Of a DNA stretch of 45,197 nt, positions 14,929 to 40,819 are shown in pieces. The notes below the pieces were generated by a model. The model was given only the letters and a program-made list of their open reading frames with translations, did not search any database and was not told the origin of the DNA. Origin of the DNA: Escherichia phage PhiNW-E1; the sequence record PQ476011.1; one strand, given 5' to 3'. The number at the start of each line of letters is the position of its first letter. Position 1 is the first letter of the stretch. Both the position numbers and the translations under genes were made by a program.

Positions 14929-14944
14929 GTCTCACATGTGAGAC
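14929..14944. repeat. 16-bp perfect palindrome GTCTCACATGTGAGAC, copy 1
   Basis: One of six copies; 3 bp upstream of promoter 14947. Confidence 0.7.
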
Positions 14945-14946
14945 TT

Positions 14947-14969
14947 ATTTACCGGACACTATAGGATAG
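14947..14969 (+). promoter_or_regulatory. Phage RNAP promoter
   Basis: TATTTACCGGACACTATAGGATAG; +1 G at 14964. Confidence 0.65.
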
Positions 14970-15119
14970 CCGTCGGAGACGGGAAAGAAAGGGAAGATAA
15001 AGGATATAAAGGAAGTAATAGGTATTAAAGGTTATATAGGTTATCTAGGAATACCTAGGAATACCTATTACCTTCTTCCTTCCTCTTATTACCACTTAGA
15101 GGAAGGGCAGACCTAGGTT

Positions 15120-15135
15120 GTCTCACATGTGAGAC
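15120..15135. repeat. 16-bp palindrome GTCTCACATGTGAGAC, copy 2
   Basis: Immediately upstream of promoter-like 15141. Confidence 0.7.
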
Positions 15136-15140
15136 TTCGT

Positions 15141-15163
15141 ATTTACCGGACAGTATAGATAAG
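15141..15163 (+). promoter_or_regulatory. Variant phage promoter (C to G at -5)
   Basis: ATTTACCGGACAGTATAGATAAG; tandem with promoter 14947 across an AT-rich repeat region. Confidence 0.45.
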
Positions 15164-15185
15164 ATTAACTTACTTTGGAGGTTAC

Positions 15186-15602
15186 ATGCGTAAATCATTA
15201 GCTCAAAGAGTAGAGCAAGCAGGTTATACTATACAAGACGACGGTACTATCAAAGGTAGGCGAGGTAACATCTTGAAACCTTGGCTTCAATCTTCAGGTT
15301 ATCCAGTTGTAAATATAGTATTCAAGAAAGGTACAAGGACAACTACCCTTGTGCATCGCATAATTGCTAGTAAGTATTGTCCTTGCTCTGACCCGTTGGC
15401 TAATGATGTAAACCACAAAGACGGAATCAAGACTAATAATGCAGCTTCTAATCTTGAATGGATTACACGTAGGCAGAACCGTAATCACTATTTAGGTTTT
15501 GAGGACTATATGACACTTACGGCAGATGATGCCCGTAAGAAGAATAATGAGCGCACTATTGCTCGACGTAAATTACTTAAACAGTTGAATAATAAGGACT
15601 AA
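15186..15602 (+). CDS. HNH homing endonuclease (free-standing)
   Basis: 138 aa; RBS GGAGG; VHRIIASKY...NHKDGIKTNNAASNLEWITRRQN; paralog of 293-745. Confidence 0.75.
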   Translation: MRKSLAQRVEQAGYTIQDDGTIKGRRGNILKPWLQSSGYPVVNIVFKKGTRTTTLVHRIIASKYCPCSDPLANDVNHKDGIKTNNAASNLEWITRRQNRNHYLGFEDYMTLTADDARKKNNERTIARRKLLKQLNNKD

Positions 15603-15604
15603 TT

Positions 15605-15736
15605 ATGCGTACTAACTTCGAAAAGATGACCCGTAAGGCTAACCGTTTTGACATGGAAGAAGGGCAGAAGAAAGGCAAGAAGCTGAATAAACCTGTCCGT
15701 GACCGTGCATCTAAACGCGCTGCGTGGGAGTTCTAA
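15605..15736 (+). CDS. Small basic protein, T7 gp1.1-like
   Basis: 43 aa, hand-translated (MRTNFEKMTRKANRF...KLNKPVRDRASKRAAWEF); resembles T7 gp1.1 as I recall it. Confidence 0.6.
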   Translation: MRTNFEKMTRKANRFDMEEGQKKGKKLNKPVRDRASKRAAWEF

Positions 15737-15739
15737 GTT

Positions 15740-17728
15740 ATGGCTATTATTCAGAATGTACCGTGTCCTGCCTGTCAAAAGAATGGACACGATAAATCCG
15801 GCAATCATCTCATGATATTTGATGATGGTGCTGGCTATTGTAACCGTGGTCATTTCCACGATAACGGCAAGCCTTACTATCATAAGCCAGATGGTGGCAT
15901 CGAGATCACCGAGTTGCCTATTACTGGCAATATCAAATATACACCTTCTCAATTCAAAGAGATGGAGAAGGAAGGGAAGATAAGCGACCCTAAGTTACGC
16001 GCCATCGCACTTGGTGGCATGCGTATGAAAGACCGATGGGAGGTCATGAATGAGCAAGAAAGGGCAGACCAAGAAGCAGAGTGGAAACTTGATGTTGAAT
16101 GGTTCCTCACGCTTAAGCGTAAGAATCTTGTTTCCCGACACATTCGCGGCGACATTTGCGCATTGTATGATGTACGTGTCGGACACGATGAAGATGGTAG
16201 AGTCTCACGGCATTACTATCCACGCTTCGAGAAAGGTGAGCTAGTAGGCGCTAAGTGTCGCACATTACCTAAAGACTTTAAGTTTGGTCATTTAGGTAAA
16301 CTCTTTGGTATGCAAGATCTTTTCGGTATGAATACCTTGTCTCACGTGTTAGACAAGGGAAGACGAAAGGATTGCTTGCTTATTGTGGGCGGCGAACTGG
16401 ATGCACTAGCAGCACAGCAAATGCTCCTTGATTCTGCCAAGGGTACTAAGTGGGAAGGCCAGCCTTACCATGTATGGTCTGTCAATAAAGGTGAGTCTTG
16501 CCTTGAAGAGATAGTACAGAACCGTGAACACATCGCCCAATTTAAGAAGATTATATGGGGTTTTGATGGCGACGAGGTGGGGCAGAAGCAGAATCAGCAA
16601 GCGGCTCGCCTGTTTCCTGGCAAATCCTATATCCTTGAATACCCTTCTGGTTGCAAAGATGCTAACAAGGCATTGATGGCTGGCAAGGCTAAAGAGTTTG
16701 TTGATGCTTGGTTTAATGCCAAGTCATCTGATGAAGTCTTTGGTAGCCAGATTAAATCTATCGCATCTCAAAGGGATAAGCTCAAGGCTGCACGTCCAGA
16801 GCAAGGGTTATCATGGCCTTGGCCTAAGCTGAACAAGGTAACGCTAGGTATTCGTAAGAACCAGCTTATCATTGTAGGTGCAGGCTCTGGTGTAGGTAAG
16901 ACTGAGTTCCTTCGCGAAGTGGTTAAGCACCTCATTGAAGAGCACGGTGAATCTGTAGGCATCATTTCTACAGAAGACCCGATGGTCAAGGTGTCCCGTG
17001 CTTTTATCGGTAAGTGGATTGATAAGCGTATTGAGTTACCGCCAACCAACGACCCGAAAGAAGACGGATACCGTGAGGTGTTCGACTACACCGAGGAAGA
17101 AGCTAACGCTGCCATTGATTATGTGGCTGATACAGGAAAGCTATTTGTGGCTGACCTAGAGGGTGACTATTCGATGGAGAAGGTAGAGCAAACTTGCCTA
17201 GAGTTTGAGGCTATGGGTATTTCTAATATCATCATTGATAACTTAACGGGGATTAAATTAGATGAGCGTGCTTTTGGTGGGAAGGTTGGTGCACTTGATG
17301 AATGCGTCAAACGAATTGGTACTATCAAAGACCGACATGCGGTTACGATTTTCCTTGTCTCTCACCTTACACGTCCTCCGGCAAACCGTACCCAACACGA
17401 AGAAGGTGGCGAAGTTATCCTTTCTGACTTCCGAGGCTCAGGCGCTATCGGATTCTGGGCATCTTACGCCTTGGGGATTGAGCGTAATACAAGAGCTGAA
17501 ACGCTTGATGAAAGGACTACCACGTACATCTCTTGTGTCAAAGACCGCGACCAAGGTATCTACACAGGAACCAAAGTCATGCTCAAGGGTGACATTCAGA
17601 CCGGACGCTTGAGAGAACCACAAGCTAGAACAAGGTCGTTTGATACAGGCGAAGCAAGGCAACAAGAAGTACCGGATTTACCGGACACTATAGAAGAGAC
17701 AACATTTGACGATGAACAGGAGTTTTAA
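15740..17728 (+). CDS. DNA primase/helicase (T7 gp4 family)
   Basis: 662 aa; N-terminal Cys zinc motif CPACQKNGHD...CNRGH; Walker A GAGSGVGKT; acidic C-terminal tail ending DDEQEF. Confidence 0.9.
   Translation: MAIIQNVPCPACQKNGHDKSGNHLMIFDDGAGYCNRGHFHDNGKPYYHKPDGGIEITELPITGNIKYTPSQFKEMEKEGKISDPKLRAIALGGMRMKDRWEVMNEQERADQEAEWKLDVEWFLTLKRKNLVSRHIRGDICALYDVRVGHDEDGRVSRHYYPRFEKGELVGAKCRTLPKDFKFGHLGKLFGMQDLFGMNTLSHVLDKGRRKDCLLIVGGELDALAAQQMLLDSAKGTKWEGQPYHVWSVNKGESCLEEIVQNREHIAQFKKIIWGFDGDEVGQKQNQQAARLFPGKSYILEYPSGCKDANKALMAGKAKEFVDAWFNAKSSDEVFGSQIKSIASQRDKLKAARPEQGLSWPWPKLNKVTLGIRKNQLIIVGAGSGVGKTEFLREVVKHLIEEHGESVGIISTEDPMVKVSRAFIGKWIDKRIELPPTNDPKEDGYREVFDYTEEEANAAIDYVADTGKLFVADLEGDYSMEKVEQTCLEFEAMGISNIIIDNLTGIKLDERAFGGKVGALDECVKRIGTIKDRHAVTIFLVSHLTRPPANRTQHEEGGEVILSDFRGSGAIGFWASYALGIERNTRAETLDERTTTYISCVKDRDQGIYTGTKVMLKGDIQTGRLREPQARTRSFDTGEARQQEVPDLPDTIEETTFDDEQEF
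17676..17698 (+). promoter_or_regulatory. Phage RNAP promoter embedded in the 3' end of the primase/helicase gene
   Basis: GATTTACCGGACACTATAGAAGAG; +1 G at 17693. Confidence 0.65.
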
Positions 17729-17889
17729 TGGAAATTATTAAACCAGTATTGAATATCGGTATTGAAATCCTATTCATGCTTGTGATCGCAGATTATGCTG
17801 CACGATATGGATTCAAGAAAGCTGTGAAACTTATCGTTGCATCTGGTTTTCTTATGTCAATGTTCTTTATTGTAACACGCCTTATCTAG
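17728..17889 (+). CDS. Small membrane protein (53 aa)
   Basis: Hand-translated; ATG overlaps helicase stop (TAATG); two hydrophobic segments. Confidence 0.45.
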   Translation: MEIIKPVLNIGIEILFMLVIADYAARYGFKKAVKLIVASGFLMSMFFIVTRLI

Positions 17890-17906
17890 TGTATTTATCA
17901 GGGCTT

Positions 17907-17922
17907 GTCTCACATGTGAGAC
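17907..17922. repeat. 16-bp palindrome GTCTCACATGTGAGAC, copy 3 (extended hairpin 17901-17928 with U-rich 3' flank)
   Basis: Flanks extend the stem; followed by CTCTTATTAAG. Confidence 0.7.
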
Positions 17923-17961
17923 AGGCTCTTATTAAGTACATTAAATAACTGGAGATTGATT

Positions 17962-18645
17962 ATGTATAAATTAGTATTGAATGCAGGTGATTATGTTCGT
18001 AACATCAATGCAACCTCACGTAGATATCGTTGCCGTGGTACTGTGACTAATGTAAGTGAAAACAGCTACTATGTAGAGTACAGTAATGGTATTAGACAGG
18101 CTTATCAAAAGGAATCAGCACATAACTACCTTGAGAAGATTGGAGAGGTAAGCAATCAATGTAAGTGCGTACACGATGAGATTTGCGATAAGTGTGCCCG
18201 CCAGATGCATAAAATGCTATTATACCCTCTTCGCTATGGTGCTGGCATTCAAACCTTAGCAGAGGCATATGGCAAAGGTAAGACTACACTTAATAAAGAT
18301 CGCCGCAATGTAATCACTGGTAAGACTCAAAGTGAAATGATTAAGCAATGTGGCACTGCACTAGGTGTTACGCAGTTTAACACTCGTGCTCTTGGTAAAT
18401 CCACAGGACAAGCTATGGTGAAGATTGGTGAAGCCATGATGCACCCAAATGTACCTGTGCGAATCATGGATGTTGACCATGCAATCACAGAACACGGTAC
18501 ACCACGACGTGTAGCTAATAAGCATTTTGCCGACACTATAGAAGGTATTATCCGTAAGCAAGGGTTGAAAGGTCTTCACCTCTTGAATGGTGAAGAATTA
18601 CTGTATCTCCCTATTGTTACTGAAGAAACCTACGTGAATATTTAA
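17962..18645 (+). CDS. Hypothetical Cys-rich protein
   Basis: 227 aa from ATG 17962 (RBS GGAGA 17951-17955); CKCVHDEICDKC cluster. Confidence 0.6.
   Translation: MYKLVLNAGDYVRNINATSRRYRCRGTVTNVSENSYYVEYSNGIRQAYQKESAHNYLEKIGEVSNQCKCVHDEICDKCARQMHKMLLYPLRYGAGIQTLAEAYGKGKTTLNKDRRNVITGKTQSEMIKQCGTALGVTQFNTRALGKSTGQAMVKIGEAMMHPNVPVRIMDVDHAITEHGTPRRVANKHFADTIEGIIRKQGLKGLHLLNGEELLYLPIVTEETYVNI
18524..18546 (+). promoter_or_regulatory. Variant phage promoter inside ORF 17962-18645
   Basis: CATTTTGCCGACACTATAGAAGG; +1 G at 18541. Confidence 0.45.
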
Positions 18646-18655
18646 GGGGTTAATC

Positions 18656-18871
18656 ATGACTAAAGTATTAATTTATATGAGAGGTTCTCGTAGATGCTAT
18701 GCAGTTGTATCACCTGATGGTGTCAAGCCCTATGGTACTTCAAAGGGGTTGGCATTAATAGGTGCCAGTCGTAGTGTAAGTTTTCAGAGGGAACTTTTCG
18801 GTCATTGGACTGAAAAAGAGTTCCGTAAAGATTTTAAAGTTATTGGCTCTTTTATGGTGGAGACTAAGTAA
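18656..18871 (+). CDS. Hypothetical protein
   Basis: 71 aa; RBS AAGGGG. Confidence 0.5.
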   Translation: MTKVLIYMRGSRRCYAVVSPDGVKPYGTSKGLALIGASRSVSFQRELFGHWTEKEFRKDFKVIGSFMVETK

Positions 18872-19125
18872 TGAAACAACGTGCAATCAAACGCTGCATC
18901 AAGCGTGCTCAGAAACAATTACGTCGTGGTACATTTAAAGGCCGTATGCGTATTGTAAGTTTTAATGCTAAAGGTATGGTCTTTGTTAGATCTTATCAAG
19001 AGGGTCGAACTATTTATGTAAACGATAAGGGTATTGGCTGGGGCAGAGGCGCTGCACTAGGTAATGGTGGTGGTCACGGTCATTGGGTAGGTAGCAAAGT
19101 AGAGGTGGCAATCTCTTATGTCTAA
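18871..19125 (+). CDS. Hypothetical basic, Gly-rich protein
   Basis: 84 aa; RBS GGAGA; start overlaps upstream stop (TAATG). Confidence 0.5.
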   Translation: MKQRAIKRCIKRAQKQLRRGTFKGRMRIVSFNAKGMVFVRSYQEGRTIYVNDKGIGWGRGAALGNGGGHGHWVGSKVEVAISYV

Positions 19126-19291
19126 ACATAGCCTTAAGATGTTCGATGGTCACGAAGACCTGCAAGCCAAGATTACTAACCAAGCCTTCCTGTTCGCACA
19201 GTTAACTATGGCTGAAGCAAAGAAGAATAGCCTGACGCGTGAACAGGTTATCAAGGAAAGTGAAGTGAAACGTAAGATTCGCAGTCGATAA
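19118..19291 (+). CDS. Hypothetical protein (57 aa)
   Basis: Hand-translated; overlaps upstream gene end by 8 nt. Confidence 0.4.
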   Translation: MSKHSLKMFDGHEDLQAKITNQAFLFAQLTMAEAKKNSLTREQVIKESEVKRKIRSR

Positions 19292-19301
19292 GTCAAGGGT
19301 T

Positions 19302-19317
19302 GTCTCACACGTGAGAC
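19302..19317. repeat. 16-bp palindrome variant GTCTCACACGTGAGAC, copy 4 (hairpin 19298-19321)
   Basis: Centre is CACGTG instead of CATG; followed by CTTTCATCAT. Confidence 0.65.
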
Positions 19318-19348
19318 AGCCTTTCATCATATTGATTGGAGGTGCATT

Positions 19349-19456
19349 ATGCCACGTGATTATGATTCTGATTGGGACTACTATGACTCAATGAATCCAA
19401 AACCCGAACGTTCAGATGATTACTACGAAACAGAGGCAATGTATGAAGACTATTAA
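19349..19456 (+). CDS. Small acidic Tyr/Asp-rich protein (35 aa)
   Basis: Hand-translated; RBS GGAGGTG 19338-19344. Confidence 0.4.
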   Translation: MPRDYDSDWDYYDSMNPKPERSDDYYETEAMYEDY

Positions 19457-19661
19457 ATTAAGCAAGGTTTGCTCTTGCGGTAAAGGTTATCGCAGTCGTA
19501 TTGATGGCAAGTGTGAAAACTGCCGCACTAAAAGGCAGAAAGATCACAATAATAAATACCACATGCACTTAATGTATCTTGACCTTAAAGCTACACCTGA
19601 TTCTGTATTAGGTAAAAGTCTTAGAGTTAAATACTTTGGAGCAATCTATGAAATCAAGTGA
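19443..19661 (+). CDS. Small zinc-ribbon-like protein
   Basis: 72 aa from ATG 19443; CSCGKGY...CENC. Confidence 0.45.
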   Translation: MKTIKLSKVCSCGKGYRSRIDGKCENCRTKRQKDHNNKYHMHLMYLDLKATPDSVLGKSLRVKYFGAIYEIK

Positions 19662-22194
19662 TTGGAAGAAGGAAGCAGAAGGTCGTATCTTAGTAATGGA
19701 TGCGGAAGCTAAAGGTCTGCTGGATACTATCCGCTACGGTCATCGTGAAGATGTACACATCATTTGCTGCATGGATTTGCTTACTACAGAGGAGTTCTTA
19801 TTCTTTGACCCATATGAGATGCGTGACCCTGAAGCAAGGGAACACCTGAAAGAGTGGGAAGGCCATCAAGATGGAACCTTGGTTGATGGTGTTAACTTCC
19901 TAAAGCACTGTGAAGCCATCGTCTCACAGAACTTCCTAGGGTACGACGGCCTTCTATTTGAGAAAGCATTCCCTGATATCTGGAAAGGCTTTAACTATAC
20001 CGAGAGACGCGGCAAGGGCAGACTCCGCGCTGACCTGTGTCCGGTACGCGTCATGGATACGCTGGTCATGAGTCGCCTGTTAAACCCCGATAGACGCCTT
20101 CCTCCGCAAGCATATGCCAAAGGTATGGGTAACGTCGCCCCTCACTCAATTGAGGCGCACGGCATCCGTATAGGCCGCTATAAACCGGAGAACGAGGACT
20201 GGTCTAAACTAACTGACCACATGGTTCACCGTGTACGCGAGGACGTGGCGATAGGCCGTGACCTATTCCTCTGGCTATTTAACGGAGAATGGACGGAGCA
20301 CAAACGCCGTGGCGTGAATAAACGCACTGGCCTAGGTATTGAGACAGCCTTCCACATGGAGTCCATTGTGGCGCTGGAGATGAGCCGTCAGGCCGAGCGT
20401 GGATTCCGTCTGGATATAGATAAAGCATTAGCACGATGCGAAGAACTGGACGCTAAGATTGATGAGACAGTCGCAGCGTTCCGCCCTCACATGCCTATGC
20501 GTATCAAGTCTAAACCTTTTAAACCGGAAGAAAAGAATGAAGTATGCCAACGCGCAAATGAGTATGGAGCTAGCAACAATATACCTACTGTCCTTGACCC
20601 CTCACACTTTCTTCATGCCGAGAGACGAGGAGATCGCAAGACAGTATGGAGTGTCACTACTAAGTCTGGTGATTGGTCGGCTAGTGTCAAGAAAGACTTT
20701 CCTCACCTTAGAGGAAACCGTAATGACACGCCAAGTATCAAGTGGATTGGTGCTTACTCGCCTGTTACTTTCGAAGAGATTCCCTTGGGTAACAGGGATA
20801 CAGTTAAGCAAGTGCTCTATGATTATGGATGGAAAGGTGTTGAATTTAACGATACCGAGCAAGCGCATCTGGATGAGTATGGAGTGTTACCCAAACCTTG
20901 GAGTGGGAAGATAAATGAAAAGTCCCTTACTTTATGGCAAGAGAGAGCCGCACGTGAAGGTAAAACAGTCCCTGATTGGTGCTTGGGTATCGCTGCATGG
21001 TACATACTCGTATCCCGTCGTGGTACGATCCTTAACCGTGGTGACGTTGAAGCCTTCGACCAGAAGGGGGTGTGGCCTTCGCAAGCTGGTGTACGAAAGT
21101 GTCGCGGCCTTGTACCTGTAGCATTTAACAAGGAGTTAGGAATCAATGCGCAGCAATACTATGAGAGGTATGGGTGTTGGCCTACGTCTGACAAGGATGA
21201 CGGAGAGTGGCGTGTTCCAGCTATTGCTATTAGTATTGGTACTTCTACGTTCCGTATGCGTCATCGTAACGTGGTTAATATTCCTGCCCGTGGCTTGTAT
21301 CCTTTACGTGATTTATTCATAGCAGGTAAAGGTAAGCTAATCCTCGGCTGTGATGGTGCTGGTCTTGAACTACGTGTACTATCTCACTTCATGAATGACC
21401 CTGAGTATCAAGATATTGTACTGCATGGTGATATACATACTCATAACCAGATGAAGGCTGGTCTTCCCAAGCGTGATATGGCGAAGACATTTATATATGC
21501 CTTCTTATATGGGTCTGGTATAGCTAACCTTGCAGCAGTATGCGGTGTTACTGAGGAAGAAATGAAGGAAGTTGTGGCAAGATTTGAGATTGAACTACCT
21601 TCCCTTGCACGTCTTCGTGAGAATGTTATCGCACAAGGTAACAAGTTTGGCTATCTACAAGCACCTGATGGGCATTGGGGTCGCATCCGTATGTCTGGTG
21701 GTGAACTTAAAGAGCACACTATGCTTAACGTACTACTCCAGATGACTGGCTCTCTGTGTATGAAATACGCATTGGTCAGAGCGTTTGCAGTGATGCGCAA
21801 GGAGGGTGTGGCTCTAGATAGCATGGGTAACCCTTGCGGTGTAGCTAACGTGCACGATGAAATCCAGATGGAAGTACCTGAAGATGAGGTCTTGTATCTC
21901 AACTACGACTTGCCTTTCACCGTAGAAGGGTTCGAAACAGAGAAGGCTGCTGTGAAAGCAGTGTTCGATGCAGAGGAGAAACGTGTTCATGTGGATTCTG
22001 AAGGACGTATGTGGTCTGCTGCAAATCTCGTTAGCGTTGATGCTGATGCTGGTGTACTTCATTGCCAGCGTCGTTATCACCGTGCAGGGCATATCATTGC
22101 CGATGCAATGACTTGGGCTGGTCATTATTTGAAGATGCGTTGTCCGATGGCAGGTGAGTATAAGATTGGTGCAAGCTGGAAGGAAACACACTGA
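19648..22194 (+). CDS. DNA polymerase, family A (T7 gp5 family) with 3'-5' exonuclease domain
   Basis: 848 aa from ATG 19648 (RBS GGAG 19637-19640); exo motif ILVMDAEAKGL; motif A CDGAGLELR; motif B DMAKTFIYAFLYGSG; motif C VHDEIQ. Confidence 0.9.
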   Translation: MKSSDWKKEAEGRILVMDAEAKGLLDTIRYGHREDVHIICCMDLLTTEEFLFFDPYEMRDPEAREHLKEWEGHQDGTLVDGVNFLKHCEAIVSQNFLGYDGLLFEKAFPDIWKGFNYTERRGKGRLRADLCPVRVMDTLVMSRLLNPDRRLPPQAYAKGMGNVAPHSIEAHGIRIGRYKPENEDWSKLTDHMVHRVREDVAIGRDLFLWLFNGEWTEHKRRGVNKRTGLGIETAFHMESIVALEMSRQAERGFRLDIDKALARCEELDAKIDETVAAFRPHMPMRIKSKPFKPEEKNEVCQRANEYGASNNIPTVLDPSHFLHAERRGDRKTVWSVTTKSGDWSASVKKDFPHLRGNRNDTPSIKWIGAYSPVTFEEIPLGNRDTVKQVLYDYGWKGVEFNDTEQAHLDEYGVLPKPWSGKINEKSLTLWQERAAREGKTVPDWCLGIAAWYILVSRRGTILNRGDVEAFDQKGVWPSQAGVRKCRGLVPVAFNKELGINAQQYYERYGCWPTSDKDDGEWRVPAIAISIGTSTFRMRHRNVVNIPARGLYPLRDLFIAGKGKLILGCDGAGLELRVLSHFMNDPEYQDIVLHGDIHTHNQMKAGLPKRDMAKTFIYAFLYGSGIANLAAVCGVTEEEMKEVVARFEIELPSLARLRENVIAQGNKFGYLQAPDGHWGRIRMSGGELKEHTMLNVLLQMTGSLCMKYALVRAFAVMRKEGVALDSMGNPCGVANVHDEIQMEVPEDEVLYLNYDLPFTVEGFETEKAAVKAVFDAEEKRVHVDSEGRMWSAANLVSVDADAGVLHCQRRYHRAGHIIADAMTWAGHYLKMRCPMAGEYKIGASWKETH

Positions 22195-22310
22195 TGGACA
22201 GGTTTGATGTTGTTTGCCTATTCTCTATCTTCTTTCTTATATTCCTTATGCTTGCTTGCTATGGAAGTATACGATTAGATATACCTGATGAAGAGGAGGG
22301 TTACGATTGA
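22194..22310 (+). CDS. Small hydrophobic peptide (38 aa)
   Basis: Hand-translated; ATG overlaps DNAP stop (TGATG). Confidence 0.35.
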   Translation: MDRFDVVCLFSIFFLIFLMLACYGSIRLDIPDEEEGYD

Positions 22311-22408
22311 TGCAAACTGCTTTTATCATTCTTGGGATCATATTATTTATGGTAGTATTCTGGGCTTTCTCTGGCATTGACCCAGATTGTGATGGTAACT
22401 ACGACTGA
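22310..22408 (+). CDS. Small hydrophobic peptide (32 aa)
   Basis: Hand-translated; RBS GAGGAGGG 22292-22299; single TMD. Confidence 0.35.
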   Translation: MQTAFIILGIILFMVVFWAFSGIDPDCDGNYD

Positions 22409-22476
22409 GTTATACTCAAGGTCACTTACGAGTGGCCTTTATGAATAACTTATTCCTACTTATTTTGTCTAACATG

Positions 22477-22499
22477 ATTTACTGGACACTATAGAAGGA
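22477..22499 (+). promoter_or_regulatory. Phage RNAP promoter
   Basis: GATTTACTGGACACTATAGAAGGA; +1 G at 22494; followed by TAGGT-rich leader. Confidence 0.7.
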
Positions 22500-22564
22500 A
22501 AGCCTAGGTAATCTAGGTTTATAAGGTAGTATAGGTAATTAAGTAAATATAGGAGATATAAAAT

Positions 22565-22942: not shown

Positions 22943-22947
22943 GGGTT

Positions 22948-23247: not shown

Positions 23248-23268
23248 TTACTGGACACTATAGAACAA
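23246..23268 (+). promoter_or_regulatory. Phage RNAP promoter
   Basis: TAATTACTGGACACTATAGAACAA; +1 G at 23263. Confidence 0.7.
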
Positions 23269-23324: not shown

Positions 23325-24131
23325 ATGGCACGTGGTGATTTTGATTTTGGTGCTCAGGTTACTAAAGCTGAAGGTAAAGTATTTAAGAACCCTGAAGTTG
23401 GTGATCATGAAGCAGTAATCTCTGGCATCATTCATGTTGGTTCCTTCCAAGATATCTTTAAGAAAGGTAATACCACTGAAGTTAAGAAGCCAGCAAACTT
23501 TGTTCTTGTTAAGATTATCCTGATGGGTGACGACGATAAGAATGAAGATGATTCTCGCATGGAACAATGGATGGCTGTGCCTCTGAAGTCTGGTGATAAG
23601 GCAACGCTGACTAAGTTCCTGAATGCAGTTGACCCTAAAGAGTTGCTGGGTGGCTTCGATGATTTTATCGGTGAATGTCTGACTGCAACTATGGTTGGCT
23701 CTGGTGACAAGAATGATGATGGTACTTTCAAGTATGTTAACTGGAAAGGCTTTGGCGGTATGCCTGATAAGTTGAAGAAGCTTGTACTGGCTCAGGTAGA
23801 AGAGGAAGGTCTGTCTATGACAGGTCATATCACCTTCGACAAGCTGACCAAAGAAATCCTTGATGACATCCCAGCTAACTTGGTACGTCAATACTTCCTG
23901 AACGAGACACCTCGTGGTAAGAACCTGTCTGTTGCTGGCTCTCACGTAGAAGCTATTATCAAAGCTGCTCGTGAAGAAGACCCTGAATGGAAGAAGGCTA
24001 AGAAGAAAGATGAGGAAGATGCTACCCCAGCTAATCGTAAATCTCTGGATACTGGTGAGTCTGTTCCACAGGAAGTACCTGAAGCAGAAGATACTCCTGC
24101 ACCGGAGATGGATGAGGACGCGGAATATTAA
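23325..24131 (+). CDS. Putative ssDNA-binding protein (T7 gp2.5-like role), acidic C-terminal tail
   Basis: 268 aa; RBS AGGAGA; position between promoter and exonuclease block; C-terminus EDTPAPEMDEDAEY; assignment is by context and tail, not strong sequence identity. Confidence 0.55.
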   Translation: MARGDFDFGAQVTKAEGKVFKNPEVGDHEAVISGIIHVGSFQDIFKKGNTTEVKKPANFVLVKIILMGDDDKNEDDSRMEQWMAVPLKSGDKATLTKFLNAVDPKELLGGFDDFIGECLTATMVGSGDKNDDGTFKYVNWKGFGGMPDKLKKLVLAQVEEEGLSMTGHITFDKLTKEILDDIPANLVRQYFLNETPRGKNLSVAGSHVEAIIKAAREEDPEWKKAKKKDEEDATPANRKSLDTGESVPQEVPEAEDTPAPEMDEDAEY

Positions 24132-24140
24132 GGAGAAAGG

Positions 24141-24359: not shown

Positions 24360-24360
24360 A

Positions 24361-24376
24361 GTCTCACGTGTGAGAC
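24361..24376. repeat. 16-bp palindrome variant GTCTCACGTGTGAGAC, copy 5
   Basis: 15 bp upstream of promoter 24392. Confidence 0.65.
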
Positions 24377-24391
24377 AAATCGGTATCCGGT

Positions 24392-24414
24392 ATTTACTGG
24401 ACACTATAGAAGAG
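24392..24414 (+). promoter_or_regulatory. Phage RNAP promoter
   Basis: TATTTACTGGACACTATAGAAGAG; +1 G at 24409. Confidence 0.7.
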
Positions 24415-24464: not shown

Positions 24465-24836
24465 ATGTTCAAGATTGAAACTATCGTAAACCGTGTTGTT
24501 AAAGGTGCTGCTCTGGTATCCGTTGAGTCTTTCATTATCGTCGATGAAGCTGATCAACTGGTAGCTGGTACTAAGGCTTACGATACCCGTGAAGAAGCTC
24601 AGGCTAAGATTGACAGCATGGGTAACTTCGCTGCTGGTCTGGAGTTCGCTCGTGCTTGCTTCCCTGAGCAGGCTGACAAAGCCCAGATCGGGAAGGCTAA
24701 CATCGTAGCTGAATATCTGGATTGGATTGCTGCTGGTAAACCAGTGAAAGAAGTTAAAGCTGCTGAAGAAGCTGAAGCTCCTGCAGTAGAAGTGTCTGCA
24801 CCGGAAGCTCCGGTTAGCGAAGAGGAAGAGTTTTGA
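24465..24836 (+). CDS. Hypothetical protein with acidic C-terminal tail ending in Phe
   Basis: 123 aa; RBS AAAAGGAGA; C-terminus PVSEEEEF. Confidence 0.6.
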   Translation: MFKIETIVNRVVKGAALVSVESFIIVDEADQLVAGTKAYDTREEAQAKIDSMGNFAAGLEFARACFPEQADKAQIGKANIVAEYLDWIAAGKPVKEVKAAEEAEAPAVEVSAPEAPVSEEEEF

Positions 24837-32637: not shown

Positions 32638-32642
32638 TCAGT

Positions 32643-32665
32643 ATTTACTGGACACTATAGAAGGG
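32643..32665 (+). promoter_or_regulatory. Phage RNAP promoter upstream of capsid gene
   Basis: TATTTACTGGACACTATAGAAGGG; +1 G at 32660. Confidence 0.7.
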
Positions 32666-32713
32666 AGAAATGTCTCCCTAAATTATCAATTTGATTTATA
32701 AGGAGGTTTATTA

Positions 32714-33922: not shown

Positions 33923-33930
33923 CACCTATG

Positions 33931-33964
33931 CCCTATCTACCTTGCGTAGGTAGGGTTCTTTTTG
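33931..33964 (+). terminator. Post-capsid hairpin plus U-tract terminator (T-phi-like position)
   Basis: CCCTATCTAC-CTTGC-GTAGGTAGGG then TTCTTTTTG. Confidence 0.6.
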
Positions 33965-33976
33965 TTAGGAGGATTC

Positions 33977-34714: not shown

Positions 34715-37116
34715 TGGAAGTACAAGGTTCATTAGGTAGACAAATCCAAGGGATTAGCCAGCAGCCGCCAGCGGTACGCTTGGATGGTCAGTGCACAGCT
34801 ATGATTAACATGATACCTGATGTAGTGAATGGTACTCAATCACGCATGGGTACAACTCATATTGCAAAGATACTTGATGCGGGGACTGATGACATGGCTA
34901 CTCATCATTATCGCAGAGGTGATGGTGATGAAGAGTATTTCTTCACGTTGAAGAAAGGACAAGTTCCTGAGATATTTGATAAGTATGGGCGCAAATGTAA
35001 TGTGACTTCACAAGATGCACCTATGGCTTACTTGGCTGAGGTGATAAACCCAAGAGAAGATGTGCAATTTATGACGATAGCTGATGTTACTTTCATGCTT
35101 AACCGCAGGAAGGTAGTTAAAGCTAGTAACAGAAAGTCACCCAAAGTTGGAAACAAAGCCATTGTGTTTTGTGCATATGGTCAATACGGTACATCTTATT
35201 CCATTGTAATTAATGGGGCCAACGCTGCTAGTTTTAAAACACCAGATGGTGGAAGTGCAGACCATGTTGAACAAATTCGAACTGAACGTATCACTTCTGA
35301 ATTGTACTCTAAGCTACAGCAATGGAGCGGTGTGAGTGACTATGAAATACAAAGAGACGGTACTAGTATATTTATCGAGAGACGGGATGGTGCTAGCTTT
35401 ACAATAACAACCACCGATGGTGCAAAAGGTAAGGACTTAGTGGCTATCAAGAATAAAGTTAGCTCTACTGACCTACTCCCTTCTCGTGCGCCTGCTGGTT
35501 ATAAAGTACAAGTGTGGCCTACTGGCAGCAAACCTGAGTCTCGTTACTGGCTGCAAGCTGAGCCGAAAGAGGGAAACCTTGTGTCTTGGAAAGAAACAAT
35601 AGCTGCTGATGTATTACTTGGGTTTGATAAAGGCACAATGCCTTACATCATTGAACGTACAGGTATCATTGACGGCATAGCTCAATTCAAGATAAGACAA
35701 GGTGATTGGGAAGATCGTAAAGTAGGGGATGACTTGACTAACCCTATGCCCTCTTTTATTGATGAGGAAGTACCCCAGACAATAGGTGGAATGTTCATGG
35801 TGCAGAACCGCCTATGCTTTACAGCAGGTGAAGCGGTTATTGCTTCTCGTACATCATACTTCTTCGATTTCTTTCGTTATACGGTTATCTCTGCATTGGC
35901 AACTGACCCATTTGATATTTTCTCAGATGCTAGTGAAGTCTACCAGCTAAAACATGCAGTGACCTTAGATGGCGCTACCGTGTTGTTCTCTGATAAGTCA
36001 CAATTCATACTGCCAGGCGATAAGCCTTTAGAGAAGTCAAATGCACTGCTTAAGCCTGTTACAACATTTGAAGTGAACAATAAAGTGAAGCCAGTAGTAA
36101 CTGGTGAATCGGTAATGTTTGCCACTAATGATGGTTCTTACTCTGGTGTACGAGAGTTCTATACAGACTCTTATAGTGACACTAAGAAGGCACAAGCAAT
36201 CACAAGTCATGTGAATAAACTCATCGAAGGTAACATTATCAACATGGCAGCAAGTACCAATGTCAACCGATTGCTTGTCACTACTGATAAGTATCGTAAC
36301 ATAATTTATTGCTATGATTGGTTATGGCAAGGTACAGACCGTGTACAATCAGCATGGCATGTATGGGAGTGGCCTATGGGTACAAAGGTGCGAGGTATGT
36401 TTTATTCTGGTGAATTACTTTATCTACTCCTTGAGCGAGGCGATGGCGTCTATCTGGAGAAGATGGACATGGGTGATGCACTAACCTATGGTTTGAATGA
36501 CCGCATCAGAATGGATAGGCAAGCAGAGTTGATCTTCAAGCATTTTAAAGCAGAAGATGAATGGATATCTGAACCACTTCCTTGGATTCCTACTAACCCA
36601 GAATTTTTGGATTGCATCTTAATAGAAGGGTGGGATTCATATATTGGAGGTTCTTTCCTGTTCAAATATAACCCTAGTGATAACACCTTGTCTACAACCT
36701 TTGACATGCATGATGATAACCACGTAAAAGCGAAGGTTATTGTTGGTCAGATTTACCCTCAAGAGTTTGAACCTACACCTGTAGTTATCAGAGATAGGCA
36801 AGATCGTGTATCCTATATTGATGTACCTGTTGTGGGGTTGGTTCACCTTAATCTTGATATGTATCCTGATTTCTCTGTGGAAGTTAAGAATGTGAAGAGT
36901 GGTAAAGTACGCAGGGTGCTAGCGTCAAACCGTATAGGTGGTGCTCTCAACAACACAGTAGGTTATGTTGAACCAAGGGAGGGTGTCTTCAGATTCCCAC
37001 TGAGGGCTAAGAGTACGGATGCTGTTTATCGTATTATTGTAGAATCACCTCATACATTCCAGCTTCGCGATATTGAGTGGGAAGGGAGCTACAATCCAAC
37101 CAAAAGGAGGGTCTAA
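34714..37116 (+). CDS. Tail tubular protein B (T7 gp12-like)
   Basis: 800 aa; ATG 34714 overlaps upstream stop. Confidence 0.75.
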   Translation: MEVQGSLGRQIQGISQQPPAVRLDGQCTAMINMIPDVVNGTQSRMGTTHIAKILDAGTDDMATHHYRRGDGDEEYFFTLKKGQVPEIFDKYGRKCNVTSQDAPMAYLAEVINPREDVQFMTIADVTFMLNRRKVVKASNRKSPKVGNKAIVFCAYGQYGTSYSIVINGANAASFKTPDGGSADHVEQIRTERITSELYSKLQQWSGVSDYEIQRDGTSIFIERRDGASFTITTTDGAKGKDLVAIKNKVSSTDLLPSRAPAGYKVQVWPTGSKPESRYWLQAEPKEGNLVSWKETIAADVLLGFDKGTMPYIIERTGIIDGIAQFKIRQGDWEDRKVGDDLTNPMPSFIDEEVPQTIGGMFMVQNRLCFTAGEAVIASRTSYFFDFFRYTVISALATDPFDIFSDASEVYQLKHAVTLDGATVLFSDKSQFILPGDKPLEKSNALLKPVTTFEVNNKVKPVVTGESVMFATNDGSYSGVREFYTDSYSDTKKAQAITSHVNKLIEGNIINMAASTNVNRLLVTTDKYRNIIYCYDWLWQGTDRVQSAWHVWEWPMGTKVRGMFYSGELLYLLLERGDGVYLEKMDMGDALTYGLNDRIRMDRQAELIFKHFKAEDEWISEPLPWIPTNPEFLDCILIEGWDSYIGGSFLFKYNPSDNTLSTTFDMHDDNHVKAKVIVGQIYPQEFEPTPVVIRDRQDRVSYIDVPVVGLVHLNLDMYPDFSVEVKNVKSGKVRRVLASNRIGGALNNTVGYVEPREGVFRFPLRAKSTDAVYRIIVESPHTFQLRDIEWEGSYNPTKRRV

Positions 37117-37838
37117 TGGCTATAGGTTCAGCCGTTATGGCTGGTATGTCTTCTATTGGTAGCATGTTTGCAGGCAGTGGTGCAGCAGCCGCTGCTGGAG
37201 GTGCTGCCGCAGGTGGCGGAGGTTTGCTAGGTTCACTAGGTGGATTCCTAAGTGGCTCTACTGCTGGTTTCTCTAATGCTGGCCTTCTTGGTGCTGGCCT
37301 TCAAGGGTTAGGCTTGATTGGTGATCTATTTGGTGGAAGTGATGAAGCCAAGGCGATGAAGAAAGCACAAGAAGAGCAATGGCGGCAGCAGCTTATTGCT
37401 ACACAAGAGGCGTACAAGACAGTGGCAGACGCAGAACGTTCTGCTGCTAAACAATATCATGCAGATGCAATCAGTAATCAGGCTTCACTGCTACAGCAGC
37501 GAGCACAGGTTGCATTACTTGCTGGGGCTACTGGTACTGGTGGTAATTCTGTGTCCTCTATGCTTAATGACTTAGCAGCAGATGGCGGCAGGAACCAGAG
37601 TACTATCATTGATAACTATGAGAATCAGAAGATTAATTTCACCAACCAGCTTAAGTCTATCCAACGTGGTGGTCAGATGCAGATGCGTGAGTTTAAGAAG
37701 CCTTCTGCTAGGAATACCTTGGTTAAAGGTATTCCAAGTCTGGCATCTGCCTATGTAACTGGTAGTAAGTCTGGCAAGGCATTGGGTAAAGCCTTAACTG
37801 ATTCTCGCACATATTCATCTGGAACAAGAGGTATTTAA
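37116..37838 (+). CDS. Internal virion protein, Gly/Ala-rich
   Basis: 240 aa; ATG overlaps tail-B stop; N-terminal Gly/Ala-rich low complexity. Confidence 0.65.
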   Translation: MAIGSAVMAGMSSIGSMFAGSGAAAAAGGAAAGGGGLLGSLGGFLSGSTAGFSNAGLLGAGLQGLGLIGDLFGGSDEAKAMKKAQEEQWRQQLIATQEAYKTVADAERSAAKQYHADAISNQASLLQQRAQVALLAGATGTGGNSVSSMLNDLAADGGRNQSTIIDNYENQKINFTNQLKSIQRGGQMQMREFKKPSARNTLVKGIPSLASAYVTGSKSGKALGKALTDSRTYSSGTRGI

Positions 37839-40786
37839 TGGCAATTGAGCGACAAGCAGTACAAGGTCTGCCACAAGTGCAGGCCACTTCTCCTAATGTC
37901 ATGACCTTTGCACCTCAACAAGTGGGAGGTGTGGAGGCTGGCGTGGCTTCTACCTCCGGTAGTAGATTTATCGAAGACCTTATTCGTGCAGCAAGCAGCG
38001 TGGCTGATGTTACCACTGGTATCCTTAATCAGAAGATTGAGGAAGATAAGGTTGTTCAAATGGAACGGGCATATAACGGATTAATGCCTTCTGAGGATGC
38101 AACTCGTGGTGGCGCTCGTGCTAACATGCTTGTCAAAGCTCAACTGCTAGCTAATGATGAAGCAGCACGAATGAAAGACATGGCTACTCGTTTCCAAGGG
38201 ACGGATGACGAGTGGACACAACTTACGGTTGACTCTCGTAATGAGATGCAGAATAAGCTGTTCCGGCAATACCCTGAGTTGCAAGGTGACAAAGATACTA
38301 TGCGTATGGTCACTAATGTCTTCCAAGAACAGCAGCCTCAGATTTGGGCTACACGAACCCAGCATAAACTTGACCGTGAACAAGCCGACCGTGAGGATAC
38401 CTTTGACGGGCGAGTGGCTTCTACTTGGGACTCTAATATTGACCCTGAAGCCTCTGGCTATGCTTTACAGGAACGAATCCGCGAAGGTCTGACTCAAGGA
38501 TTACTACCTGAACAGATGCACAAGAAGTTAGTCCAGCGGGCAATTTCACTTGCACAAGGTGGTGATGTTAGCATGGCTGAAGCCCTGAAGTATGTGAAGG
38601 ACGATAAGGGCGTTTCTGTTTATGCTAAGAATCCACAGCTTATCACAGCCATCACTAGTGGTAATGCAGTTTGGGCTAGGAATAATGTAGCTGATGTAAC
38701 TCGTATGTCTTTCGAAGTTAAAGAATCATACCTTGCAGGTGATTTAACTGATGAAGAATTGTTGGAACGAGCACAGCACATTAATAATCTGACAGGTAAC
38801 TATGTCTTCTCTAATCCAGAGCTAGAGGCACTGATGCGCAAACGGGCTAAGCAAAATGCAGAGCTAGGTGCAATGCAGGATATGCGACGTGAGCTTTACT
38901 CCGACCGCCTGACTGGCTTCCAAGGTAAGACTGATAAAGAGAAGAAGGCTTACATTGATGTTATCAAACAGGATAGCCAACTTTATGCAGACCAGCAAAT
39001 CAAACAACGTGGCTTGGATCCTTACAGTCAAGAGGCTGAAGCTATTCGTGGTGCAGTGGAAGTGCAGCGTCTGCAATTCATGAACTCCAAAGGCTTAGTG
39101 GATGACACCTTTGAGTCTCGTATCAAAGCCATGGAATCTATGCTATCGCCTGAGCACTTTGCCAAGGGCGAACCACAGGAGTTGATGACTATTCGCCAGT
39201 TGTGGGAACAGTTGCCAGAAGAGAGCCGAGGTGTCTTTGGTGACACGGTTAATGGCTACATGGATAACTACAACACTGCACTACAAATGGGAGAGACACC
39301 TTTGCAGGCTGCAAGGTTTGCGCGTGAAGCACAGCAGAAATTCTCTCGTACTGAGAAGGAAACCAAGAAGTTCAACTCAGCTATTGGAGATGCACTGGAT
39401 GAGGTATCTGGTGCTGGCTGGTTTGATGGTAAAACCGAAGTGTCAGACTTAGGTAAAGCTATTGCGGAAGAAGAGTTACGAGCTAAGGCCAATATGTTGT
39501 GGTCTAGCGGTATGCGTAACATGGATTCTATCAAGAAGGCTTTAATTACTTGGGGCAATAAACGCTACACTCAATCAGAGGATGCAAAGACTTCCGGTGG
39601 CTATTTCATTAAAGGTGATTACACTTCTGCATCTGATATGCTTATGTCAGTTGGGAAAGGTGTAAACCCTACCGATGCCCCTCTGGCGCTTGGTAGGTAT
39701 GTAGAAACACAGATGCCAGAATTGAAGAAGGAGCTTCAAGAGTGGGAAACTAAGGATGATGTGTACATTGATTACAATGAACAGAAAGGAACTTTTGTGA
39801 TTCGTGCTGGTGCAGCAGGTCGCCCTCTTTCTGGAGTAATCCCTGTAACTTCTTTGGATACCACTTCACTACTGGATTCTGCCTATCAGAAGAAAGTAGA
39901 AGAACGAGATAAAGGCGAGTATGTTCACCCGTATCGTACAGATATTGGTGCACAAGAGCCTATGCCAGCTAAACCAACTGCCAAAGATATTGGTAAATTT
40001 GGACTAGCTAACTTCCTCATGTCTTCTGCTTTTGCTTCTGGTGAGAATCTACCTTCTAACTTCGAGATTAACTATCGAGGTAATATGCAACAATTCTATG
40101 ACAAGCTAGCTATGGATGAGAATAAAGATAAAGTTGGCTTTAATAAGGCAACTGGAACCTTTACTCCATATAAAGACGCTCACGGTGAGTCTATCGGTTA
40201 CGGTCATTTCTTAACGGAAGAAGAGAAGCGAAACGGGTATATTAAGATTGGCGATGAACTAGTTCCCTATCGAGGGTCTATGTCTCAGCTTACAGAGAGT
40301 AAGGCTCGCGCTCTTATGGAGCAAGATGCTAAGAAGCATGTGCCACCTACTCGTGATTGGAAGATTCCATTCGACCAAATGCATCCGGCACAGCAACGTG
40401 GCTTGATGGATTTAACCTACAATTTAGGTAAAGGTGGAATCCAGAACTCACCGCGTGCTCTTGCTGCATTCAAGGCAGGTAAGCTTACAGAAGGCTTTAT
40501 CGAAATGCTGGGTACTGCATCCAGTGAAGGTAAGCGTATTCCTGGCTTATTAAAGCGTAGAGCAGAAGCTTACAACATGGCATCTGCTGGCGGTGTACCT
40601 AAGATTACCGAAGTAGAGACTCGTGAAGATGGGTCTATGTGGGTTAAGTTTGGTGGACCTATGCCAGCAGGTTCTGTCTCTGCGTGGACTCATAAACGTA
40701 TAGGTGCTGATGGCTGGTATCAGGTTTATGATGCTGCACCTACTAAGCTGGCTAAAGGCTCTAAGGTAGGTAAAGTTAAGTTGTAG
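37838..40786 (+). CDS. Internal virion (ejection) protein with C-terminal lysozyme-like domain
   Basis: 982 aa; C-terminal region has YKDAHGESIGYGH and a following helical segment like the T4-lysozyme/GH24 fold. Confidence 0.7.
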   Translation: MAIERQAVQGLPQVQATSPNVMTFAPQQVGGVEAGVASTSGSRFIEDLIRAASSVADVTTGILNQKIEEDKVVQMERAYNGLMPSEDATRGGARANMLVKAQLLANDEAARMKDMATRFQGTDDEWTQLTVDSRNEMQNKLFRQYPELQGDKDTMRMVTNVFQEQQPQIWATRTQHKLDREQADREDTFDGRVASTWDSNIDPEASGYALQERIREGLTQGLLPEQMHKKLVQRAISLAQGGDVSMAEALKYVKDDKGVSVYAKNPQLITAITSGNAVWARNNVADVTRMSFEVKESYLAGDLTDEELLERAQHINNLTGNYVFSNPELEALMRKRAKQNAELGAMQDMRRELYSDRLTGFQGKTDKEKKAYIDVIKQDSQLYADQQIKQRGLDPYSQEAEAIRGAVEVQRLQFMNSKGLVDDTFESRIKAMESMLSPEHFAKGEPQELMTIRQLWEQLPEESRGVFGDTVNGYMDNYNTALQMGETPLQAARFAREAQQKFSRTEKETKKFNSAIGDALDEVSGAGWFDGKTEVSDLGKAIAEEELRAKANMLWSSGMRNMDSIKKALITWGNKRYTQSEDAKTSGGYFIKGDYTSASDMLMSVGKGVNPTDAPLALGRYVETQMPELKKELQEWETKDDVYIDYNEQKGTFVIRAGAAGRPLSGVIPVTSLDTTSLLDSAYQKKVEERDKGEYVHPYRTDIGAQEPMPAKPTAKDIGKFGLANFLMSSAFASGENLPSNFEINYRGNMQQFYDKLAMDENKDKVGFNKATGTFTPYKDAHGESIGYGHFLTEEEKRNGYIKIGDELVPYRGSMSQLTESKARALMEQDAKKHVPPTRDWKIPFDQMHPAQQRGLMDLTYNLGKGGIQNSPRALAAFKAGKLTEGFIEMLGTASSEGKRIPGLLKRRAEAYNMASAGGVPKITEVETREDGSMWVKFGGPMPAGSVSAWTHKRIGADGWYQVYDAAPTKLAKGSKVGKVKL

Positions 40787-40803
40787 TACCTAACTCAAGG
40801 CTT

Positions 40804-40819
40804 GTCTCACATGTGAGAC
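40804..40819. repeat. 16-bp palindrome GTCTCACATGTGAGAC, copy 6 (hairpin about 40800-40823)
   Basis: Between the two large internal virion protein genes; followed by TCTTTATG. Confidence 0.7.

Follow-up and report, generated by a model that had tools for sequence, protein, structure and literature searches.

Phages of the SP6, K1E and K1-5 type are the source of a standard laboratory RNA polymerase and have a therapeutic use against encapsulated E. coli, Salmonella and Klebsiella, and their gene regulation is assumed to mirror that of T7. The genome of Escherichia phage PhiNW-E1 (sequence record PQ476011.1) contains several copies of a 16-bp palindrome, GTCTCACATGTGAGAC, of which the T7 genome has none, and the question that these copies raise is what reads them, and whether it reads them as RNA or as DNA. 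We addressed this question over the whole stretch of 45,197 nucleotides, referred to as the window, which is a circularly permuted Vectrevirus genome (K1E/K1-5-like; Autographiviridae, Molineuxvirinae). It shares 90-97% identity with many Vectrevirus-type phages and bears all its genes on the plus strand, with the RNA polymerase (RNAP) gene at 12227-14854. The answer that we favor, with a probability of about one half, combines two settings: at three sites the palindrome would cap an RNA hairpin of the RNase III type, and elsewhere it would be a duplex-DNA site for a symmetric protein.

A search for the 16-mer allowing up to three mismatches returned eight copies in the whole window, compared to a mean of 0.23 and a maximum of 2 in dinucleotide shuffles. 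Four copies are exact (14929, 15120, 17907 and 40804), three have one mismatch (19302, with the centre AC; 24361, with the centre GT; and 8880, with G12T), and the one at 16339 has two. The first-pass annotation of the window had listed six copies and a degenerate one at 8880, all of which we recovered as it had described them; the copy at 16339 was absent from its list. It had also called all copies intergenic, which is correct for the seven listed and wrong for the family, as the copy at 16339 lies in the open reading frame (ORF) of the primase/helicase gene and relatives carry further copies within ORFs. The eight copies and the structures capped by three of them are the following, with no strand assigned to the bare palindromes.

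8880 to 8895, no strand assigned: left-end copy, GTCTCACATGTTAGAC, ahead of the early promoters and at a distance of about 630 bp from the left genome end of the K1E type; fold z = +0.4.
14929 to 14944, no strand assigned: free-standing copy B1, behind the RNAP gene and its terminator, ending 2 nt before the first phage promoter (14947); fold z = -0.2.
15120 to 15135, no strand assigned: free-standing copy B2, ending 5 nt before the second phage promoter (15141); fold z = +0.9.
16339 to 16354, no strand assigned: in-ORF copy G1, GTCTCACGTGTTAGAC, inside the primase/helicase gene (15740-17728), where it encodes S-H-V-L-D.
17887 to 17943, plus strand: bipartite RNase III-type hairpin A1, between gene 9.5 and gene 10, with the palindrome 17907-17922 as its apex; z = -5.9.
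19282 to 19340, plus strand: bipartite RNase III-type hairpin A2, upstream of gene 12 and the DNA polymerase gene, with the palindrome 19302-19317 as its apex; z = -4.8.
24361 to 24376, no strand assigned: free-standing copy B3, ending 15 nt before the promoter of gene 18 (24392); fold z = -0.7.
40781 to 40843, plus strand: bipartite RNase III-type hairpin A3, between the gp35 and gp36 homologues, with the palindrome 40804-40819 as its apex and the flanks ACUCAAGG…UCUUUAUGAU; z = -4.7.

The proximity of B1, B2 and B3 to promoters had been noticed in the first-pass annotation and is real. The window has 12 phage promoters, and only these three have a palindrome.

At 17907, 19302 and 40804, the palindrome is the tip of a larger structure. 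Here the first-pass annotation had seen hairpins extended by complementary flanks to 10-12 bp; these are present and were understated, as in each of A1, A2 and A3 the palindrome tops a 13-bp upper stem, which an internal loop separates from a lower stem of 9-11 bp. The 'U-rich tracts' that it had placed after the hairpins are really the conserved 3' arm (CCUUUAUGA, CUCUUAUUAA and CCUUUCAUCA), with no U-runs of the terminator kind. All three structures are kept across genera, with changes on both sides of 5-9 pairs per site (5 compensatory pairs in A1, 9 in A2 and 8 in A3). Paired cells reach 98.6% in A2 and 98.5% in A3, compared to 26-48% with slid partners, and none of 500 shuffles attained the observed covariation. 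Several of the conserved pairs are G·U and hence valid only in the sense strand. Since they would be A·C in the opposite strand, the structure that is conserved is that of the RNA of the coding strand.

The flanks and architecture of A1 to A3 resemble those of the RNase III sites of T7. When the T7 sites are folded, R0.3, R0.5, R1.1, R1.3, R4.7 and R18.5 have in common with A1 to A3 the 5' flank ACUCAAGG and the 3' flank CCUUUAUGA(U/A)U, and the three hairpins are similar in sequence and structure to the T7 sites with their flanks CUCAAGG / CCUUUAUGAUU. These six sites and R1 are likewise bipartite hairpins with an internal loop, bounded by 5' (A)CUCAAGG and 3' CCUUUAUGA(U/A)U, and lie between cistrons, just upstream of the ribosome-binding site. 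The difference resides in the apex: GGUC(G/A)CU…AGUGGCC with a 10-bp stem in T7, and a conserved 16-nt palindrome with a 13-bp upper stem in the putative sites A1 to A3. This palindromic apex sequence is also present in the window as free-standing copies, of which T7 has none.

We trained a covariance model on T7 RNase III sites alone, seven in number, and this model recovered the held-out T7 site R6.5. When both strands of the window (approximately 90 kb) were searched, A3 ranked second (29.3 bits, E = 1e-5) and A2 fourth (19.8 bits, E = 0.006), and the syntenic gp35/36 site scored 31-42 bits in six relatives. The same model detected a near-canonical site between the DNA polymerase gene and the promoter at 22477.

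22407 to 22453, plus strand: canonical T7-type RNase III site without the palindrome (51.9 bits, E = 3e-12), the reference family member in the window.

As the apex of this site is of the T7 type, the palindrome is not required for membership in the RNase III site family. E. coli RNase III needs about 11 bp or more from the cleavage site to the apex, is limited by internal loops to cleavage of one strand, which leaves a protective 3' hairpin, and tolerates base pairs added distal to the distal box without a shift of the cleavage site (PMC1540722). A1 to A3 conform to these rules, in that an internal loop divides about two turns of helix and the 13-bp upper stem exceeds the 11-bp minimum. They are most likely mRNA processing sites, not terminators, and by their flanks, architecture and covariation we add them to the family of T7 RNase III sites, in which their conserved apex is unusual. 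An RNA processing hairpin was among the options raised in the first-pass annotation, and for the three extended copies it is well supported. The host RNase III would most likely cut each of them once, on the 3' side of the internal loop (between …CCUUUAU and GA…), and the cut would release the upstream message, with a 3' hairpin that protects it, from the downstream cistron, which has its ribosome-binding site about 10 nt beyond. Together these sites provide a map of likely RNase III processing in the SP6/K1E group.

Weaker candidates for RNase III sites occur at 5500-5542 (before the tailspike gene), at 12160-12208 (just before the RNAP gene) and at 14849-14898 (the terminator behind the RNAP gene). 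Separately, the 3' arms of the lower stems at 17887-17943 and 40781-40843 resemble degenerate promoters, as exemplified by GGCACUAUGGAGG when compared with GGACACUAUAGAAG.

To describe the palindrome beyond the window, we compared K1E, R4596, SP6, the Klebsiella phages K44PH129C1 and F5M1D, Proteus phage PM85, Pectobacterium phage POP72 and Erwinia phage S2. In each of these eight relatives, the palindrome family is the most repeated family of 12-mers after the phage promoter. Its form is GTCTCAC-RY-GTGAGAC in Vectrevirus and Erwinia S2, GTCYAAC-RY-GTTRGAC in SP6 and GTCCAAC-RY-GTTGGAC in the Klebsiella and Pectobacterium phages; in PM85 it is the 17-mer GTCCAACA(G/C)TGTTGGAC. Palindromes occupy about nine syntenic positions across Molineuxvirinae, and the synteny holds from Vectrevirus to Eracentumvirus and partly to Colwellvirinae. 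One is near the left genome end, one follows the terminator of the RNAP gene and closely precedes the first promoter, and others precede the second promoter and that of gene 18. A palindrome also lies within the primase/helicase gene, behind the helicase gene, ahead of gene 12 and the DNA polymerase gene, between the gp35 and gp36 homologues and, in some lineages, inside the RNAP gene and inside the gp23 or ligase gene. In particular, the left-end copy, which corresponds by homology to K1E coordinate 632, is syntenic in K1E, R4596, SP6, K44PH129C1, PM85, POP72 and S2, in a region that is conserved and non-coding. B1 has a syntenic counterpart in every genus, 2-9 nt away from the promoter. B3 lies 14-18 nt before its promoter in SP6, K44, PM85 and POP72, and the palindrome itself is its only conserved structure. 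The features of the window that surround B1 and B3 are these.

14862 to 14885, plus strand: intrinsic terminator behind the RNAP gene; palindromes of the family often follow such terminators.
14947 to 14969, plus strand: phage promoter, ATTTACCGGACACTATAGGATAG.
24382 to 24405, plus strand: hairpin formed by the spacer and the promoter core, whose pairing covaries with promoter specificity across genera.

The family extends to more distant phages. Pseudomonas phage Achelous (Colwellvirinae) has 11 copies of GTCTCACA(G/C)TGTGAGAC at similar kinds of location, and IMG/VR contigs with an SP6-like gene content and 35-50% protein identity have 4-9 copies each; single IMG/VR matches were disregarded, as the chance level is estimated at about 50 per pattern. 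In the distant SP6-like relatives, a terminator, the palindrome and a Shine-Dalgarno sequence recur in this order, with the last two 0-4 nt apart. Closer to the window, the two Vectrevirus genomes ACG-C91 (L065, 10225-10240) and L107 (9394-9409) have one site each with the GTCCAAC…GTTGGAC allele, namely A3 in ACG-C91 and A1 in L107. The flanks of these two sites are near-identical to those in K1E or the window and all other sites are GTCTCAC…GTGAGAC, which amounts to four coordinated changes within 16 bp. Identical GTCTCAC(AT/GC)GTGAGAC sequences occur also in unrelated elements of 68-73% G+C, the IMG/VR contigs L243 (964-3019) and L240 (2061-2159), of 129 kb and 85 kb. In one the palindrome flanks a parA/parB-like operon and in another three copies lie within 100 bp between divergent genes, contexts that we read as operator- or centromere-like.

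Overall, the 16-mer is an autonomous and ancient cis-module of the SP6 supergroup of T7-like phages, composed of two abutting halves of the form 5'-GTC-Y-M-AC-R-3'. Tentatively, and with less than even confidence, we propose that a sequence-specific factor, deeply conserved throughout the supergroup (in Molineuxvirinae, Colwellvirinae and environmental relatives), recognises it at 8-11 sites per genome, which lie beside promoters, after terminators, in essential genes and at the tips of RNase III hairpins. In the literature that could be searched, which leaves out the founding genome papers of SP6 and K1-5, sequence- and topic-based queries found no earlier description of the palindrome; a prior mention is therefore possible.

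Outside the three hairpins, the constraint on the palindrome takes another form. No extended structure surrounds the copies at 8880, 14929, 15120 and 24361 (see the fold z-scores above), and comparative folding across genomes yields the palindrome alone. With a stem of 6-7 bp, which is below the RNase III minimum, and with no conserved lower stem or flanks, the free-standing copies do not qualify as RNase III sites, and none is found among the hits of the T7-trained model. An extended RNA structure at the in-ORF copy 16339 was considered on account of its z of -5.0 in the window and rejected, as the pairing is not conserved in other genera.

The in-ORF copies are under selection at the nucleotide level. 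Within the primase/helicase ORF, the entropy of third-codon positions is 0 at the palindrome codons GTG, GAC and AAC/CAC, compared to 0.9-1.8 bits in the flanking codons. The only positions of this palindrome that vary are 4 and 13, which define the allele, and the encoded residue is His or Asn according to the allele of the genome; the same is true of the RNAP-gene copy in other genera. The G12T change at 16339 can be ascribed to the reading frame, in which a perfect palindrome would make a TGA stop. The second most conserved cis-element after the promoter is a palindrome absent from T7, maintained at a cost in amino-acid choice in the RNAP, primase/helicase and ligase genes. For genome engineering, this means that recoding or refactoring would destroy the in-ORF copies.

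Within the core, each half varies independently of the other. In eight complete genomes, the centre is AT, GT, AC or GC in 56 out of 56 copies, with no centre of the transversion type, which puts a purine at position 8 of the half-site on both strands. The likeness of the centre to an E-box, raised in the first-pass annotation, is irrelevant here, as the centre simply follows this purine-pyrimidine rule. The combinations T4·G13 and C4·A13 are found in 17 and 13 copies, respectively, with no excess of G·U in the sense strand; bare copies have 16 G·U and 11 A·C combinations, and mixed half-site combinations are common. A true mismatch is present in 37 of 125 bare copies and in 4 of 54 hairpin-capping copies (P-value about 9e-4, Fisher test, uncorrected for relatedness). 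Base pairing of the core is thus under selection at the tips of RNA hairpins, while elsewhere the half-site GTC-Y-M-AC-R is what is kept. The switch to the 17-mer, which has an extra central base, was concerted, affecting five of the six sites in PM85 and all sites in Achelous.

The independence of the halves, the tolerated mismatches, the lack of any synonymous variation in the ORF and the concerted changes lead us to interpret the free-standing copies as probable duplex-DNA sites for a symmetric protein. The absence of extended structure, the position of the left-end copy in conserved non-coding DNA ahead of the early promoters and the operator-like arrays in the high-GC elements also favor this interpretation. 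This is the best-supported reading of these copies, and an RNA hairpin operator is its main rival. The operator for a dimeric protein that the first-pass annotation had suggested is thus retained as the best available reading of the 16-bp core in the five free-standing copies, on the strength of independent half-site variation, nucleotide-level selection inside ORFs and concerted changes from 16- to 17-mer in two lineages; the protein that it implied has no identified candidate among those encoded here. According to this model, a putative dimeric protein, probably encoded by the phage and conserved across the supergroup, would bind at 8880, 14929, 15120, 16339 and 24361. As the sites concentrate in the early and middle third of the genome, a role as roadblock or insulator of transcription is conceivable for the protein, beside promoters, downstream of terminators and in the interior of long genes. 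The dual setting would also be explained, because the apex of a hairpin must be palindromic anyway and a DNA palindrome could share its sequence with an RNase III hairpin free of cost. If such a sequence-specific factor exists, it would provide a layer of temporal or transcription-boundary control that T7 does not have, and the identity of the reader would expose a regulatory step specific to the supergroup.

Operators of dimeric proteins, such as the lac operator when it blocks T7 RNAP or the 16-bp sites of the parS/ParB type, offer a parallel. They share with the palindrome the 16-bp dyad with each half-site conserved, the multiple dispersed copies and the sets of sites that change in concert between lineages, and the identical sequence flanks a parA/parB-like operon in an unrelated high-GC contig. 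They differ in that the palindrome has spacings of 16 and 17 bp in one genome, that some copies lie in ORFs or at hairpin apices, and that our searches returned no cognate protein.

Several of our results weigh against the proposed combination of settings. The dyad symmetry with independently varying, conserved half-sites expected of an operator is found, but the spacing of the half-sites is not fixed within a genome: in PM85, the left-end copy is a 16-mer and the five other sites are 17-mers. This mixture of lengths in PM85, and that of two alleles in ACG-C91 and in L107, should not be tolerated by a rigid dimer, whereas a reader of hairpins would accept it. The distance to the promoter varies between sites (2, 5 and 15 nt). 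Many copies in distant relatives closely follow a start codon or are separated from a downstream Shine-Dalgarno sequence by 0-4 nt, which fits a translational operator at the RNA level equally well. Searches of Pfam, PHROG and PDB with the proteins of unknown function returned no cognate DNA-binding protein and no recognisable nucleic-acid-binding domain, and the AlphaFold model of gp10 is uninformative (predicted local distance difference test, pLDDT, of 51). The counts of unique sites are phylogenetically non-independent. As for the hairpins, the cleavage of A1 to A3 by RNase III is predicted from homology only, and A1 has a weak score with the T7-trained model (14.7 bits, E = 0.18, rank 8 in the window). 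The coordinates of the T7 sites used for training are those that we take to be given by Dunn & Studier 1983. Their only cross-check was that of R1.1, through its GCAA tetraloop (PMC1540722).

The main rival assumes that all copies act as RNA, in the form of a 6-7-bp hairpin with the loop C-R-Y-G that is the operator of a sequence-specific RNA-binding protein or endoribonuclease. This factor would control translation or processing at cistron boundaries, and at three sites its hairpin would merely top the RNase III hairpins. Most copies are indeed in transcribed regions, on the coding strand; positions 4/13 and 5/12 of the palindrome covary; in SP6-like contigs of distant relatives, the palindrome comes right behind the ATG or borders on the Shine-Dalgarno sequence (0-4 nt); and growth of the loop from 4 to 5 nt would be harmless, which fits the coexistence of 16- and 17-mers in PM85. 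We nevertheless consider an all-RNA function doubtful, although it is the likeliest of the alternatives. Mismatches of the C·A, C·U or A·G type, which would abolish the 6-7-bp hairpin, are present in 30% of the free-standing copies, the in-ORF copy of SP6 is outside the predicted fold, and the lack of an excess of sense-strand G·U over A·C gives no proof of a function of the core as RNA. The purine-pyrimidine centre is a restriction that a free loop would not have. Moreover, little transcription is expected at the left-end copy, which precedes the early promoters, and the three copies upstream of promoters are missing from the transcripts that those promoters start.

The other alternatives are less likely. 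Termination or pausing of the phage RNAP at the palindromes was another option of the first-pass annotation; like the equivalent with the host RNA polymerase, it now appears very unlikely. B1 and B2 are followed by UUAUUU and UUCGUAUUU, but their terminator-like scores are weak and they are called as minimal 6-bp sites only; the extended hairpins lack a U-run beyond the complete stem and escape the terminator calls. The R4596 record annotates the homologue of A1 as a predicted terminator. Copies are often found at the boundaries of transcription units, either before or after them, but in an essential gene a conserved one occurs around codon 200, and in relatives others are present in the RNAP, gp23 and ligase genes. 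Strong canonical terminators are separate elements (14862-14885 and 33930-33956), often immediately upstream of a palindrome, and terminators require no conserved stem sequence. We judge it improbable, too, that the palindrome is a selfish or recombination-driven cassette with no reader acting in trans, spread and made uniform by gene conversion or by templated (quasi-palindrome) mutation, in the manner of the T4 promoter-stem-loop cassettes or of in-frame palindromic elements. Such a cassette would account for the swaps of whole alleles within otherwise identical flanks (A3 of ACG-C91 and A1 of L107), for homogeneity within genomes, including that of the 17-mer forms, for in-frame copies that appear independently in four different genes, nearly all in the frame S-N/H-x-L-D, and for the promoter-like sequence of the lower stems of A1 to A3 and of the B3 spacer. 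It is at odds with positions that are syntenic, and not variable, across genera and even subfamilies and with the strong purifying selection on synonymous sites inside ORFs, and an identity of 16 bp is very short for homologous gene conversion. The last alternative, that the palindromes are hairpin or cruciform substrates of nucleases of the supergroup (the Mre11/SbcD-like phosphoesterase gp22 and the endonuclease VII gp21), so that breaks would start recombination-dependent replication or concatemer formation, is the hardest to sustain. The SP6 supergroup does have both the palindrome family and the gp21 and gp22 genes, whereas T7 has neither, and the copies are clustered around the counterpart of the T7 primary origin region, right behind the RNAP gene. 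However, these nucleases read structure and not sequence, which leaves the invariant half-site unexplained, a 16-bp palindrome is short for extrusion, and mismatched copies are conserved.

Other families of repeated stem-loops are similar to the palindrome in part. T4 reportedly has promoter-early stem-loop (PeSL) cassettes, said to have been described by Arbiol et al. 2010. As in these cassettes and in R4.7-phi4.7 of T7, a conserved stem-loop stands immediately upstream of a phage promoter in the window and is repeated several times in the genome. The three promoter-proximal palindromes, however, have neither RNase III flanks nor a lower stem, and their positions are syntenic instead of being shuffled between related genomes, as would be expected of elements of the PeSL kind. 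REP/BIME and the RPE of Rickettsia are also short repeated palindromes between genes, sometimes in frame within them; the palindrome is far shorter, has just 8-11 copies at positions conserved over deep divergence, and has no associated transposase.

A number of candidate readers and known sites were considered. For gp10 as a putative zinc or helix-turn-helix (HTH) protein, the low-confidence model (pLDDT 51) gives no information. A binder of the LuxR type was rejected for gp18, whose match to TraR in PDB is weak (E = 0.48) and whose tail is acidic (…EEEEF), like those of T7 gp2.5 and gp4. The small-protein families gp41/gp42 and gp15.5/gp17 have no recognisable DNA-binding features. SP6 primase is said to recognise 5'-GCA-3', reportedly from work by Tseng et al. 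2000, and the palindrome, which does not contain this GCA, was not retained as a primase recognition site. The host-factor sites matS, the SlmA-binding site, parS, lac, CRP and FabR appear not to fit in the order or spacing of their half-sites.

Two of the proteins encoded near B3, gp16 (23325-24131, plus strand) and gp18 (24465-24836, plus strand), have acidic tails with a terminal aromatic residue (…DEDAEY and …EEEEF). By analogy with the polymerase-binding tails of T7 gp2.5 and gp4, they are probably single-strand-binding and replisome accessory proteins.

Further observations concern the surroundings of B1 and B2 and the terminase locus. The 170-nt untranslated stretch between the promoter at 14947 and the palindrome at 15120 contains a long inverted repeat, GGAAGUAAUAGGUAUU…AAUACCUAUUACCUUC, at approximately 15010-15075 (plus strand). 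Its position matches that of R1.1 and the primary origin region of T7, and its fold z is just -1.3. Right behind the promoter at 15141 lies an ORF for an HNH endonuclease (15186-15602, plus strand; PHROG E = 8.5e-34; Pfam HNH_3). At this locus K1E has the small genes 8 and 8.5, and PM85 and S2 carry HNH genes between the RNAP and primase genes. A group I intron (Rfam, 61 bits) at 1826-2074 on the plus strand interrupts the large-terminase gene, in a region with ORFs at 693-1949, 2119-2652 and 2594-3376, and the ORF that adjoins the intron is the counterpart of K1E gene 40.5, which is annotated as a putative homing endonuclease.

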